64,000 bases of DNA from Candidatus Parcubacteria bacterium (lineage in GTDB: Bacteria; Patescibacteriota; Microgenomatia; UBA12405), in NCBI GenBank assembly GCA_023396915.1, contig JAEWUV010000002.1, forward strand, positions 3,171-67,170, given 5' to 3'. Below, piece by piece: positions 839 to 6,140 of the stretch. Within the stretch, counting starts at the first letter, position 1, and each line of letters starts with the position of its first letter. Under the pieces are notes generated by a model. That model ran no database searches. It was not told the DNA's origin and worked only from the letters and a program-made list of their open reading frames with translations. A program made the translations under genes and the position numbers.

Positions 839-1480
839 TTACTGTAATGAGGTTAAATCGTCAATTACTGCCTTGATATCAGAAAATTCGAATCCTTGGC
901 GTAAAAGTGAAGAATAAAGTCTGTTTTTGGCTTTAAAATCTTTTAATAGTTTTTGGGTTACTCTTTTTTTAGTTAAAATTCTTTTAATTGATTCGATATC
1001 ATTAGTATTATTTAAATTTAGATTTGAGATATTTACTCCTTTTTGGGCTAATAAAAATTTTACCTGTTTGATTGATTTGTGGTGATTTTTGGCAATAAAA
1101 CTTTTTATAAAATCATCTTGATTAAGAAGTTTTTTTGCATTTAAATTGTCGATAATTGAGGTAATTATTGGGCTAAAATTAAAATTAGAAAAATATTTAT
1201 ATTTCTGGGATTTTTTTATAAAAAATATTTTTAATTTTTGAGAAATTATTTTTTCAGTTTTTGGAGAAATGGCTATCTGACGTAAAGCATACTCATTACC
1301 CAAATAAGACAGCGACGATTGAATTATTTGGGTAAATTTTTCTTCATCTATAGGTTGGCTTTTTTGAAGAGAAAGTTTGACAACATCATCAATAAAAAAA
1401 GGAAGATAGGAACCGTCAGAAAAAACTAGATTAACCCTATTTTTTATCCGACTGACTTTAATGTTGTTTAGGCTTAACAT
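839..1480 (-). CDS. recX: Recombination regulator RecX
   Basis: 213 aa immediately downstream of recA with overlapping stop/start; repetitive three-helix RecX-like repeats, C-terminus LLRQGFEFSDIKAVIDD. Confidence 0.75.
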   Translation of the reverse strand: MLSLNNIKVSRIKNRVNLVFSDGSYLPFFIDDVVKLSLQKSQPIDEEKFTQIIQSSLSYLGNEYALRQIAISPKTEKIISQKLKIFFIKKSQKYKYFSNFNFSPIITSIIDNLNAKKLLNQDDFIKSFIAKNHHKSIKQVKFLLAQKGVNISNLNLNNTNDIESIKRILTKKRVTQKLLKDFKAKNRLYSSLLRQGFEFSDIKAVIDDLTSLQ

Positions 1481-2568
1481 TATTCTTCTTCAGAGCCAGA
1501 AGAGGCTTTGGTAGTTTGTCCTGATTCAGCTTCGGCTTTGATTTTATTCCAAATATTCTGACGGTATTTGTCAGCAATTTTAGGATTATCCTTGAAATAT
1601 TTTTTAGCGGCTTCACGACCTTGGAGATTTTCATCGCCAACTTTAAAGAAAGCACCTGATTTGGTGATAAAACCGTGGGTAACGGCTAAATCAACTAAGC
1701 CACCGGTGGTAGAAATACCTTCAGTGTTCATGATATCGAATTCGGCTTCTTTAAATGGTGGAGCTACTTTATTTTTGATAATTCTAGCTCGGTGTTGAGA
1801 ACCAACAGCATCACCTGAACTGGTTTTGATGTTAGCAATTTTTCGTAAATCAATTCTGACAGAAGCATAGAATTTAAGAGCTAAACCACCAGGGGTCGTT
1901 TCGGGATTACCAAACATAATGCCAATTTTTTGACGAATTTGATTGGTAAAAATAACAACGGCTTTTGATTTAGAGATAGCCCCGGTAAGCTTACGTAAAG
2001 CCTGGGACATTAATCTGGCCTGAACACCCATCATTGAATCCCCCATTTCACCTTCAATTTCAGCTTTTGGAACTAGGGCGGCAACAGAATCGACAACTAT
2101 AACATCAACAGCATTAGATCGGACCAAAGTTTCAACTATTTCTAAGGCTTGCTCACCATTATCAGGTTGAGAAATTAAAAGATTGTCTAAATTGACACCA
2201 ACAGTGGCAGCGCGAGCTGGATCAAGAGCATGTTCGACATCAATAAAAGCACAGGTTCCACCCATTTTTTGGGCTTCAGCAATTACATGTAAACAAACAG
2301 TTGTTTTACCGGATGCTTCTGGGCCAAAAATTTCAGTAACTCTTCCACGAGGTAAACCACCAACACCAAGAGCAATGTCTAAAGGCAAACAACCGGTTGG
2401 AATAACTTCAATGGACATATCGGCCTGCTTGGCACCCATTTTCATAATGGCACCATCACCATAAGCTTTGGATATTTGTTCCATAGCAACTCTAAGAGCT
2501 TCGTTTTTTTGATCTTGGTTGGCACCGACAACGGCACCTTTTTGGACTTCTTTTTTCTTTCTTCCCAT
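1480..2568 (-). CDS. recA: Recombinase RecA
   Basis: Walker [11 protein letters not shown]2 loop [33 protein letters not shown]. Start placed at the internal Met (MGRKKKEV...); the ORF track's upstream Met at 2595 is a possible alternative. Confidence 0.95.
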
Positions 2569-2685
2569 ATTTTTATAAAAAAAATTAATTAACAATATAG
2601 TGATAACAGTTTTTATTGGGTAACGTCAAGGTATCAAAACCGAAGAAAACCCAAATATCTGTCTACAAGTGGGTTATAATAACTT

Positions 2686-3564
2686 GTGAAAATAACTTCT
2701 GTTGAAATTGCTAAATTATATAAAACTAAAAGAGGTGAAATACTAATTCCTTTTACAAAAGGAAGAGGGATTGGTTTAATTAAAAAATACAAAAATGAGA
2801 TAGTTCCAATAAAGGATAATAAAAGAATTTTTATTAAAATTTTTCTCTCTAAGGAGAATGTTGTTAATGGAACTATTGATATGATTGATTTTGATAAAAA
2901 AAGAGATGATGCTTACGTTATTACTGATGATCCAAATAAATATGGTAGAAAAATTACAAATTTTAGTTTTGGAGAAGAAGAAAATCTTTTTCTTTCAAAA
3001 GAAAAAGGAGTATTTGTAAAAACAAAAAATAAATATATTTCTATAAATAACTTTGTTGATGTTTTAATTAAAAACCATCTATCTGATAAACTTTTTCTTA
3101 AAAGAAAAATCAATCAGTTAATAGATTATCTAATTAAGTTCATATTTTGGCTTGATAATCAAAGATATGAACCAAGTACTATTTTTTTGATTAAAAACGG
3201 CTTAGGTAAACATGAAGAAAAAAATAAGCCAAAAACTGAAACCCCAGAACCTTTTTTTAAATATTTTTATATTAAGAAAAATTTTTTATTATCTTTATTG
3301 TTAATGTCGTTAATAATAATTAGTACTTTTATAATTAGGTTAGAATGTTCTGACAACCATTTTGGTTATTCTATTTTTTTAAATTTATCTTTATCTAACC
3401 CAGTAGTTATACTGGTTTTTATTGTGTTTCTATTTATTGCTGAAAAAATTTCATCTAAATTAGATAGTTTGATAGAAGGTTTTTACGAAAATGATAAAAA
3501 AAATATTCTTAACAGAATAGATCAATACAAAAACAACTCAAGTTTTAGACTTAGATTTAATTAA
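2686..3564 (+). CDS. Hypothetical membrane-anchored protein (about 200-aa soluble N-domain plus two C-terminal TM helices); very AT-rich orphan
   Basis: 292-codon ORF with a GTG start; Lys/Asn/Ile-rich; C-terminal hydrophobic segments LLSLLLMSLIIISTFII and VVILVFIVFLFIA; no recognisable catalytic motif. Confidence 0.45.
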   Translation: MKITSVEIAKLYKTKRGEILIPFTKGRGIGLIKKYKNEIVPIKDNKRIFIKIFLSKENVVNGTIDMIDFDKKRDDAYVITDDPNKYGRKITNFSFGEEENLFLSKEKGVFVKTKNKYISINNFVDVLIKNHLSDKLFLKRKINQLIDYLIKFIFWLDNQRYEPSTIFLIKNGLGKHEEKNKPKTETPEPFFKYFYIKKNFLLSLLLMSLIIISTFIIRLECSDNHFGYSIFLNLSLSNPVVILVFIVFLFIAEKISSKLDSLIEGFYENDKKNILNRIDQYKNNSSFRLRFN

Positions 3565-3576
3565 AATATTTTTTTG

Positions 3577-3650
3577 TCGGGGATACAAGATTCGAACTTG
3601 CAACCTCGCGCACCCCATGCGCGCGCGCTAGCCAATTGCGCCAATCCCCG
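3577..3650 (-). tRNA. tRNA-Pro (anticodon GGG)
   Basis: Reverse complement folds as a 74-nt cloverleaf: acceptor CGGGGAT/ATCCCCG, D-stem GCGC/GCGC with GG in the loop, anticodon stem CGCGC/GCGCG, loop ATGGGGT (U33, GGG, G37), T-arm GCAAG-TTCGAAT-CTTGT, discriminator A. CCA is not encoded. Confidence 0.8.
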
Positions 3651-3707
3651 CCTTCGCTAAGGCTACGGCGGACAAAGCCCGTTTCGCTGAAGGTAGACTA
3701 TTATATC

Positions 3708-4238
3708 TTATTTTGCTGATTTTTCGGTTTGATAAGCTTTGAAAGATTGTTTGATGATTTTGTAGGCTTGGGTACGATTAAGCCAACCTTTGACTTTGAC
3801 TTCTTTGTTACTCTCTAACCTTTTATATTCAGAAAAGAAGTGAACTAATTCTTTTAAGAAATGTTCATCCACATCACTAAGTTTTTGAATGTGGTCGTAA
3901 TTGGGGTTTTTACTGGGAACTGCCAGGATCTTTTCATCTTCACCTTTTTCATCTGACATAATCAAGACACCGATTGGGCGAACTTCGACCAAACAACCCG
4001 GAAAAACCGGATAATTAGTGATTATCATGATATCAAGATGGTCACCGTCTTTTGATTTTGTTTGGGGAACGAAACCATAATCAACCGGATAATGCATTGG
4101 GGAATGTAAAGTTCTGTCAAGTTTAATAATATGTAAATTTTCGTCGTATTCATATTTATTGTGAGTATCTTTGGGAATTTCAACAATAACATTGATTATT
4201 TTAGGTGAGTTATCACCAATAGGAATGTCTGACATCAT
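3708..4238 (-). CDS. ppa: Inorganic pyrophosphatase (family I)
   Basis: 176 aa; EIPKDTHNKYEYDE, DGDHLDIMI, YGFVPQT motifs. Confidence 0.9.
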   Translation of the reverse strand: MMSDIPIGDNSPKIINVIVEIPKDTHNKYEYDENLHIIKLDRTLHSPMHYPVDYGFVPQTKSKDGDHLDIMIITNYPVFPGCLVEVRPIGVLIMSDEKGEDEKILAVPSKNPNYDHIQKLSDVDEHFLKELVHFFSEYKRLESNKEVKVKGWLNRTQAYKIIKQSFKAYQTEKSAK

Positions 4239-4288: not shown

Positions 4289-5239
4289 ATGGCAGTGAAA
4301 TTTGGACCAAGTGATTTACTAAGAAACGAACATTTTTTAGTGTTGAAAAAAGAAAGTAGAAAAACCAGTAAAGGGGATGTTTACTATCAACTACAATTAT
4401 CAAACAAAGACGGAATAATTGAGGCAAAAATTTGGAATAATAATATTCCAATGTGTAATTTGGAGCAAGGTAAAGTAATTGAGCTTGACGGAAAAACCCA
4501 AGAATACAACGGAAATATCAGTATAATTATTGACAGTTGTCGGATAGTAAATAATGAAGAAGTGATAGATTATTCCCCTATTACCAGGACGATGGTTTTT
4601 GATATCGAAACAATAGGGAAAAAGTTTGAAGAATTAGACGAAGTGGAACAAGATTATTTATTAAATAATCTGGAAAGAAATACCGAAGACAAAGAAGAGG
4701 CTAAAAAGAAAACTGGATTGTATTCAATTTTTGGAAAAGTGTGTGCCATTGGTGCTTATAATCCGGGTTCTGAAAAAGGGATGGTATTGCTTTTGGGGGA
4801 AAAAGAATTGAAACCGGAAAAAGAAAATTATACTTACAAAATCTTTGAAAACGAAAAAGATTTATTAATTGAATTTTGGAAAATTGCCAAAGAGTATGAG
4901 TTGTTTGTTACCTATAATGGTGATAATTTTGATTTTCCCTATTTAATAATCAGATCAGGAATTAATCGGGTAAAAGTTCCTTTTGAAGTGAAAAGATGGG
5001 GGTCGGAAAAATTTATTGATTTGTTTAATTTAATTAAGCAAAGTCATGGGTTTAAACTAGAAATGGTTTGTAAGGCGTTTGGAATTGAAAACCCAAAAGA
5101 AGAAGGGGTTCACGGAGGAGATGTAAATGAATTGTTTTACAATAAAGATTTTCAAAAAATTGCTGATTATGTGGCTAGAGATGCTTATTCAACGGCTCAA
5201 TTATATTTGGTATGGAAGGAATATATGAGCGGAAACTAA
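4289..5239 (+). CDS. OB-fold domain fused to a PolB-type DEDDy 3'-5' exonuclease (RNase H-like)
   Basis: N-terminal OB-like region (VYYQLQLSNKDGIIEAKIWNNN...). Exo I VFDIETIG, Exo II YNGDNFDFPYL, Exo III YVARDAYSTAQLY. TATAAT ends 6 nt before the ATG. Confidence 0.6.
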   Translation: MAVKFGPSDLLRNEHFLVLKKESRKTSKGDVYYQLQLSNKDGIIEAKIWNNNIPMCNLEQGKVIELDGKTQEYNGNISIIIDSCRIVNNEEVIDYSPITRTMVFDIETIGKKFEELDEVEQDYLLNNLERNTEDKEEAKKKTGLYSIFGKVCAIGAYNPGSEKGMVLLLGEKELKPEKENYTYKIFENEKDLLIEFWKIAKEYELFVTYNGDNFDFPYLIIRSGINRVKVPFEVKRWGSEKFIDLFNLIKQSHGFKLEMVCKAFGIENPKEEGVHGGDVNELFYNKDFQKIADYVARDAYSTAQLYLVWKEYMSGN

Positions 5240-5396: not shown

Positions 5397-6125
5397 TTAA
5401 AGAATAAAGAAAAGAATTAAGGCTAGTGTTATTACATATACGCCAAAAACCCAGAATTTTTTGTTGAGGGTGATTTTTTGAAAAATAGACAGAACGAAAT
5501 AACCAACTAAGAAAGTGCCTATAAAAGCAATGAGACTATTTAAAGTAAAAAAGTTTGATGAGGCAATATCTTTTAGGCCAAGAATGACGGCACCGGCAGT
5601 GGCCGGAATAAAAAGACTGAATGAAAAATTAAAAGCATTTTGAGGAGATAATCCCAATAGTAAGGCGGAAAAAATAGTACACCCGGAACGGGAAACACCA
5701 GGAAGAATAGCTAAAGCCTGAAAAATACCAATAATAAAAGCAGAAAGATAGTTTATCGGTTTATTTTTGGATTTGATAAATTTGGTAGAAAAAACTAGAA
5801 AACCAGTAAGTAAAAAGAAAAATGGTAGAAGTTGAGGTAAGGCTGTAAGAGATTCGATTTGGTCTTTGAATAAAATACCGATAATGGCAGCCGGGATGGA
5901 GCCAATAATAATATATTTTAAATTGTCAAAAAAATATTTGATTTGATGACGAAAAAAGAAAACTACAGAAATAAATGTAGCGGCATGAAGAAAAATATCA
6001 AAGTCCAAGGAAGGAGTTAATTTAAAAAAATGTTGGAATAAGTTGAGATGACCGTCGGAAGAAATTGGTAAAAATTCACTAACGGCTTGAATAATACCTA
6101 AAGTGATTGATTGGATTAAAGTCAT
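5397..6125 (-). CDS. uppP: Undecaprenyl-diphosphatase UppP/BacA
   Basis: 242 aa polytopic membrane protein; LGIIQAVSEFLPISSDGHL and PGVSRSG motifs. Confidence 0.85.
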   Translation of the reverse strand: MTLIQSITLGIIQAVSEFLPISSDGHLNLFQHFFKLTPSLDFDIFLHAATFISVVFFFRHQIKYFFDNLKYIIIGSIPAAIIGILFKDQIESLTALPQLLPFFFLLTGFLVFSTKFIKSKNKPINYLSAFIIGIFQALAILPGVSRSGCTIFSALLLGLSPQNAFNFSFSLFIPATAGAVILGLKDIASSNFFTLNSLIAFIGTFLVGYFVLSIFQKITLNKKFWVFGVYVITLALILFFIL

Positions 6126-6140
6126 GAGTTAATTATAACT

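Follow-up and report, generated by a model that had tools for sequence, protein, structure and literature searches.

The window, by which we mean the whole 64,000-nt stretch of contig JAEWUV010000002.1 that was analysed, carries near its beginning the gene order recA, an open reading frame (ORF) for a protein of 292 amino acids, tRNA-Pro(GGG) and ppa (Table 1). The ORF (2686-3564) is the sole non-shadow ORF on the plus strand within the first 4 kb, as an earlier, sequence-only reading of this DNA had stated, and its three neighbors are encoded on the minus strand. The 3' end of the tRNA faces the stop codon of the ORF. The same reading had placed the two 13 nt apart; their adjacency holds, while the distance is 11-12 nt, depending on whether the tRNA is delimited by ARAGORN or by Rfam (3577-3650). 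Translated from its GTG start, the ORF has an N-terminus that lines up in alignment with those of its homologues. The gene is present in one copy in the window, and the identical protein is found on 18 contigs, with the same neighborhood on all but one of them. No ncRNA other than tRNA-Pro was found in the AT-rich stretch by an Rfam scan, and a promoter/terminator scan of the locus returned sites no commoner than in shuffled sequence.

Some features of the flanking genes were also recorded. The recA frame extends over 1480-2595 (minus strand) and offers TTG at 2595 or ATG at 2568 as possible starts, of which the gene calls for the source contigs take the ATG form (362 aa). Between the ppa stop codon and the 5' end of tRNA-Pro lies a GC-rich spacer of 43 nt (3651-3693), whose predicted fold is no better than that of shuffles and which has no second copy in the window. 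A gene at 4289-5239 (plus strand), which adjoins ppa in all relatives, encodes a 316-aa protein with an N-terminal OB fold and a PolB-type 3'-5' exonuclease/RNase H-like domain.

With a GC content of 22.0% the ORF is far more AT-rich than recA (39.4%), ppa (34.3%) and the window as a whole (35.5%), in agreement with the earlier impression of an AT-rich gene. Its GC3 value is 13.0% as compared to 26.0 ± 2.8% for the 57 other genes of the window (z = -4.6), and both its GC and its GC3 are the lowest in the window. The product also has the highest share in the window (48.5%) of the residues with AT-rich codons, FYMINK (Phe, Tyr, Met, Ile, Asn, Lys). The recX-like gene at 839-1480 (minus strand), which gives weak matches to RecX HTH sub-domains only, is AT-rich too (GC 26%, GC3 20%) and yet syntenic in all relatives, so that low GC alone is no mark of foreign genes here.

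Table 1. Positions of genes, protein segments and the inserted segment at the recA/tRNA-Pro locus (window coordinates).
Feature	Position	Strand	Remarks
recA	1480..2568	-	
recA upstream region	2569..2656	-	conserved with relatives; intact despite insertion
Inserted segment, 919 nt	2657..3575		ORF, preceded by 29 nt and followed by 11 nt; alignment with L032
Gene for 292-aa membrane-anchored protein	2686..3564	+	GTG start; 47-sequence alignment, AF2 model
Alpha/beta domain, aa 1 to ~185, predicted cytoplasmic	2686..3240	+	
Juxtamembrane motif EPFFKYFYIKKN, aa 188-199	3247..3282	+	predicted short beta hairpin abutting TM1
TM1, ~aa 199-221	3280..3348	+	hydropathy; AF2 helix 198-221
TM2, ~aa 234-257	3385..3456	+	conserved S-N-P at start, conserved E253 at end; hydropathy, AF2
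Basic C-terminal tail, predicted cytoplasmic	3457..3561	+	conserved amphipathic helix, consensus NFIxKLHNYQ...FKLK
tRNA-Pro(GGG)	3576..3650	-	ARAGORN; 3' end toward the stop codon of 2686-3564
ppa	3708..4238	-	

Related loci were fetched with RecX as a lineage-specific probe, which yielded 28 metagenomic loci (RecX 46-71% and RecA 80-89% identical), 19 of them covering the junction of tRNA-Pro and recA. All 19 keep tRNA-Pro(GGG), recA, recX and, where covered, ppa, with a spacer of 99-586 nt between the tRNA and recA, and a relative of the ORF was found in none of these syntenic loci (tblastn, 1e-5). The closest co-oriented relative, L032, provides the empty site: where the window has 919 nt, L032 has 14 nt (CTTAAAAAATATAA), the homology between the two running up to position 2656 (...AAAACCCAAAT; ...AAAACCGAAGAAAACCCAAAT) and resuming at 3576, the 3' end of the tRNA. 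With the 919-nt segment a single gene has been inserted into the short spacer that separates the recA upstream region from the 3' end of tRNA-Pro. In this upstream region a motif, GTCAAGG...AAAACCGAAGAAAACCCAAAT (window 2626-2656), is conserved in L032, L052 and L057; it possibly serves recA as a promoter or regulatory element.

Taken together, the absence from 19 relatives, the empty site of L032 and the deviating GC3 (z = -4.6) indicate an insertion, and we consider it highly probable that the gene is an acquired islet gene which arrived by horizontal transfer. The islet that the sequence-only reading considered is thereby supported, composition being atypical and orthologues in the same context lacking from the 19 related loci. 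That reading had also seen neither an integrase nor a direct repeat, and this stands: the insert holds one ORF, without recombinase domain, and around it no att-like repeat or target-site duplication was detected, the best matches between the tRNA and the region not exceeding those of shuffled sequence. Like tRNA-targeted genomic islands, the segment sits directly beside a tRNA 3' end where a relative has an empty site, and its composition deviates; unlike these, it consists of a single gene (919 nt) and lacks both an integrase and a duplicate of a tRNA segment. As neither integrase nor att repeat is present, entry probably occurred by recombination after DNA uptake, or else the gene would be the leftover of a larger island after deletion or erosion.

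The tRNA-Pro(GGG) gene is oriented like recA in the window, L032, L040 and L048, and is inverted in the 16 other covering relatives; the occurrence of two orientations implies that the tRNA gene flipped within the lineage. L033 (~5960-6130) and L034, which do not differ in this sequence, carry between tRNA and recA a GC-rich insert (~150 nt) that is flanked by a second copy of 13 nt from the tRNA-Pro 5' end (CGGGGATTGGCGC); the arrangement resembles a scar left by a further insertion beside tRNA-Pro. The cargo of the spacer region from ppa to recA differs among relatives (L037, L040, L043, L047, L048, L049, L051, L058); by eye, it includes a multi-pass membrane protein of 167-176 aa, a glycosyltransferase-like gene (403 aa), a PP2C-like gene (422 aa) and a 213-aa unknown protein, and in L047 an ORF of 122 aa resembling a four-helix bundle (GC 23%) between tRNA and recA. 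The ppa-recA interval with its tRNA-Pro is a small hot spot.

The sequence-only reading had regarded the gene as an orphan, and in the strict sense this did not hold. A word-indexed search returned seven relatives of the protein, and phmmer, run exhaustively against 1.84 billion representatives, brought the number of homologue clusters (50% identity) to at least 72, 52 of them at E <= 1e-10; when the alignment was used as a profile against a set of 5.8 billion proteins, the matches listed contained almost nothing new. The homologues are 25-42% identical to the window protein, and nearly all are 270-310 aa long (~280) and align end to end. Genomic loci were obtained from GTDB species representatives (22 loci) and, for the remainder, by exact look-ups. 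All homologues with a host label belong to Patescibacteria, among the GTDB representatives to Saccharibacteria, Paceibacteria-type groups and Peribacteria, with the exception of one on a 3-kb contig in a "Gammaproteobacteria" bin (L024, CAYTKU010000064.1), a label that is probably due to a binning error or to a host-associated contig. In a neighbor-joining tree (computed without support values) the saccharibacterial copies are scattered and the gene tree departs from host taxonomy, and in 20 of 22 loci the family gene is more AT-rich than its neighbors (by 8 GC points on average).

An AF2 model on the 47-sequence family alignment reached a pLDDT of 89.8 and a pTM of 0.81. Given homologues with conserved motifs and this confident fold, the ORF is a real gene and not a spurious one. 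The idea that it is a vertically inherited core hypothetical gene, or an AT-rich frame arisen by chance, has nothing in its favor beyond low sequence complexity; it is contradicted by the conserved motifs and the fold as well as by the absence from 19 of 19 syntenic relatives and the empty site in L032, and we regard it as refuted.

Searches against known families remained negative throughout. The window protein had no family match in Pfam, NCBIfam, PADLOC or PHROGs, where sub-threshold hits represented membrane-helix noise. When each of 47 members was compared to Pfam and PADLOC no family could be assigned either, the isolated matches comprising one member with the PADLOC E2 model (5.3e-5) and a weak one of another single member with the 4TM "Effector" model (E = 0.0088). 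Nothing was found in the PDB by sequence (profile search and a concatenate of ten members), and the AF2 model had no convincing structural relatives. Judged from its sequences, the family appears to be undescribed; it is restricted to Patescibacteria and patchily distributed, and its copy in the window is intact.

Hydropathy and the AF2 model agree on the architecture that had been proposed from the sequence, i.e., a soluble domain followed by two C-terminal transmembrane helices and a tail, with the domain now delimited to ~185 aa. This domain is laid out as a helix, a four-strand meander, small hairpins and three helices, and its conserved residues are Y12, G28, Y35, T91-N92-F93, N130-H131, D134, R140, F154 and Y161. 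Two positions, Y35 and H131, are invariant in the 47-sequence alignment and a further eight nearly so (Y12, G28, N130, F154, P189, F194, N199, N238). Conservation is equally pronounced in the juxtamembrane stretch (P189 96%, F194 98%, N199 91%) and in TM2 (N238 96%, E253 81%), and the recurring motifs of the family are NH(L)xD, an EPFFKYFxIxKN that immediately precedes TM1, an S-N-P with which TM2 begins and a glutamate at its end; the window protein retains every conserved residue noted. A catalytic, sensor or pore motif could not be recognized in the protein, and no alignment column has cysteine in more than 30% of the 47 sequences. On average, members of the family have 2.8 lysine and arginine residues ahead of TM1, 0.4 within the loop and 5.9 behind TM2. 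This distribution points to a membrane hairpin with both ends on the inside, in the cytoplasm, and to a cytoplasmic N-domain of ~185 aa.

Such a topology brings to mind class II holins, which are small proteins (<~150 aa) with two membrane helices encoded in phage lysis cassettes. The gene could be thought of as the remnant of a prophage or mobile element, in which a superinfection-exclusion or holin-like lysis protein was left behind after decay at the tRNA. In line with such an origin would be its location beside the tRNA 3' end, the class II holin-like hairpin of two helices, whose ends are both inside and which a basic tail follows, and the serine recombinases or Bro-N found near some homologues. 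However, no viral, phage or plasmid relatives were found in IMG/VR (two motif sets), INPHARED or PLSDB, and no fold match in BFVD; att repeat, integrase and phage genes are absent at the locus; and a 292-aa protein with a large cytoplasmic domain, and with no endolysin nearby, is unlike holins even though the topology fits. We therefore consider a phage ancestry of this kind very unlikely.

The genomic contexts of the homologues comprise 26 non-redundant loci, all different from one another, and 17 of these other loci have recognizable defence or mobility genes no farther than about three genes from the family member, namely DNA methylases, type I hsd genes, restriction enzymes, OLD, GmrSD and NERD nucleases, Fic, toxin-antitoxin genes and serine recombinases. 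In L004 the family gene (X) lies between hsdM and hsdS in the arrangement HsdM-X-HsdS-Fic-HsdR, while hsdS or hsdM lies directly upstream of it in L009, L015, L019 and L029. N6/N4 methylases are found nearby in L010, L013, L017 and L022, an MvaI/BcnI restriction-modification system in L025 and L026, serine recombinases in L014, L023 and L026, and GmrSD-HNH, NERD, CBS/HEPN-like or HTH genes in some loci. The member of L001 is accompanied by N6_Mtase, S24 and PemK, that of L059, the closest homologue (42% identity), by DpnI, and that of L061 by an Eco47II restriction-modification system, an OLD-TOPRIM ATPase and SocA_Panacea. The 114 neighbors located up to three genes away include more DNA methylases (five N6_N4, four N6_Mtase, one EcoRI-type) than members of any other family, and HsdS, MvaI, ResIII, Fic and S24 come next. 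The family gene follows a same-strand gene at <=22 nt in 16 of 24 mapped loci, often overlapping it; in the defence neighborhoods, too, it is often the downstream gene, set close behind its neighbor. Across loci there is no recurrent partner gene, and pairs are locus-specific.

Rx4H motifs, which are typical of HEPN RNases, were noticed by eye (RNDAGH, RNFIHP) in the gene directly upstream of the family member in L061 (4103-4948) and in one located one gene further in L019 (1397-2185). The gene upstream of the member in L015 has CBS and a weak HEPN_RiboL-PSP match.

Judged by its contexts, the family behaves as mobile cargo of defence islands. This association is correlative, and variable regions gather many kinds of accessory genes. 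Because the homologues usually sit among restriction-modification and other anti-phage genes, we nevertheless propose the gene as a defence candidate. A defence-related role, as suggested by gene context, has in our estimate about even odds, and the same holds for our main reading of the window gene (probability roughly 0.5), namely that it is a horizontally acquired, stand-alone defence-island gene whose product probably acts at the membrane as an effector of exclusion or abortive infection. The likeness to abortive-infection and toxin effectors raised by the sequence-only reading gains indirect support from the 17 of 26 loci in restriction-modification or defence neighborhoods. Nothing points to an integrase-type targeting of the tRNA, att repeat and integrase being absent.

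Alternatively, the protein might be an accessory subunit of restriction-modification systems that works only together with a methylase or restriction complex, e.g., by tethering or regulating it at the membrane where DNA enters, with the window copy as a stranded remnant without partner. The tight or overlapping junctions within hsd and type II operons (-4/+1 nt in L004, 8 nt in L009, 1 nt in L026, 4 nt in L029) would suit such a subunit, as would the predominance of methylases among the neighbors. But the systems it would have to partner are mutually unrelated (type I, MvaI type II, DpnI, GmrSD, OLD), and none of the possible interacting families is found repeatedly; several copies are solitary, surrounded by housekeeping genes, and the supposed remnant is intact and identical on 18 contigs. 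A role as subunit therefore appears unlikely.

Nine of the 26 loci, and the window itself, have no defence neighbor within three genes and are surrounded by housekeeping or unknown genes (in the nine, e.g., DAO, DFP/sigma-70, RecQ and PMT). Together with the fact that the window protein matches no defence model and that relatives carry other variable cargo at the same tRNA, this could speak for a non-defence accessory membrane protein, serving the envelope, host attachment or the stress response, that gathers in variable regions of patescibacterial genomes. The predicted cytoplasmic location of most of the protein argues against a surface role, and methylases and nucleases cluster around the family much more densely than would be expected for a random accessory gene, the expected frequency being a general background estimate. 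We rate a non-defence function as unlikely.

If the gene does serve defence, the protein would by itself make up a complete module of defence or exclusion. The EPFFKYF hairpin would hold the cytoplasmic alpha/beta domain against the membrane, this domain would sense a cue related to infection or to foreign DNA, and the membrane would then be the target of the two-helix hairpin with its conserved polar residues (N199, N238, E253) and of the basic tail, through permeabilisation or depolarisation as in two-helix abortive-infection effectors, or through a block of DNA entry. An abortive-infection mechanism that specifically perturbs the membrane is a tentative suggestion, which we hold to be less likely than not.

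Among known systems, the CBASS effectors Cap15/2TM, PycTM of Pycsar and SLATT proteins have, like the family, a cytoplasmic domain at the N-terminus and two membrane helices at the C-terminus; residence in defence islands, patchy distribution and AT-richness are further traits in common. Unlike members of the SLATT, Cap15 and PycTM families, none of the 47 members gave a profile match, apart from the weak 4TM "Effector" hit, and in contrast to CBASS and Pycsar effectors the N-domain has no recognized ligand-binding fold. Neither the neighbors scanned individually nor the 25 commonest families of the 114 neighbors included a cyclase, SMODS or other nucleotide-signalling partner. By analogy, the two-helix abortive-infection membrane effectors would still be the closest working likeness, though for each family tested neither the characteristic sequence nor the characteristic partner was found.

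The homologues within hsd operons (L004, L009, L015, L019, L029) occupy the classic latent "guard" position of PrrC and RloC; different from these, the family has no ABC-ATPase or anticodon-nuclease domain and is membrane-anchored, and the window copy and many others lie outside hsd operons. The family was also compared with E2/UEV (UBC-like) proteins, including the CBASS E2. It has no conserved cysteine that could correspond to the catalytic one of the E2/UBC superfamily with its HPN motif; one of the 47 members hit the PADLOC E2 model (5.3e-5), and an hhalign comparison of the family with an approximate UbcH5b sequence gave a probability of 0.1%. It is nonetheless conceivable, if quite improbable, that a cysteine-less E2/UEV-like sensor is coupled rigidly to a holin-like hairpin, and that the family represents a new, Patescibacteria-specific class of stand-alone immune effectors acting as "guard" of restriction-modification systems, with solo cassette copies. 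Following the logic of PrrC with a membrane output, such a guard would fire when a phage disables the neighboring methylase or restriction complex, and copies of the window type would work alone after having moved as single-gene cassettes.

Very few defence systems have been recognized in Patescibacteria, in whose tiny genomes there is hardly space for such systems (PMC12366544). Recently, in 2025, functional metagenomic selection recovered LdgA and DdgA, orphan defence proteins restricted to Patescibacteria that resemble no known protein in sequence or structure and protect E. coli from phage (PMC12366544), which sets a precedent for such orphans. Our family resembles these, by description, in its restriction to Patescibacteria and its lack of known homology. 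Should the gene not be defensive, the finding would be that of an ordinary acquired hypothetical gene. A lineage-restricted family of ~280 aa that rides with restriction-modification and other defence genes, folds confidently in the AF2 model and has no match among described families nevertheless offers a tangible candidate for a single-gene module of defence that would be new. Moreover, the filled site of the window and the empty site of L032 form a natural pair that documents the gain of a single gene beside a tRNA without an integrase, and thereby bears on how reduced genomes acquire accessory genes.
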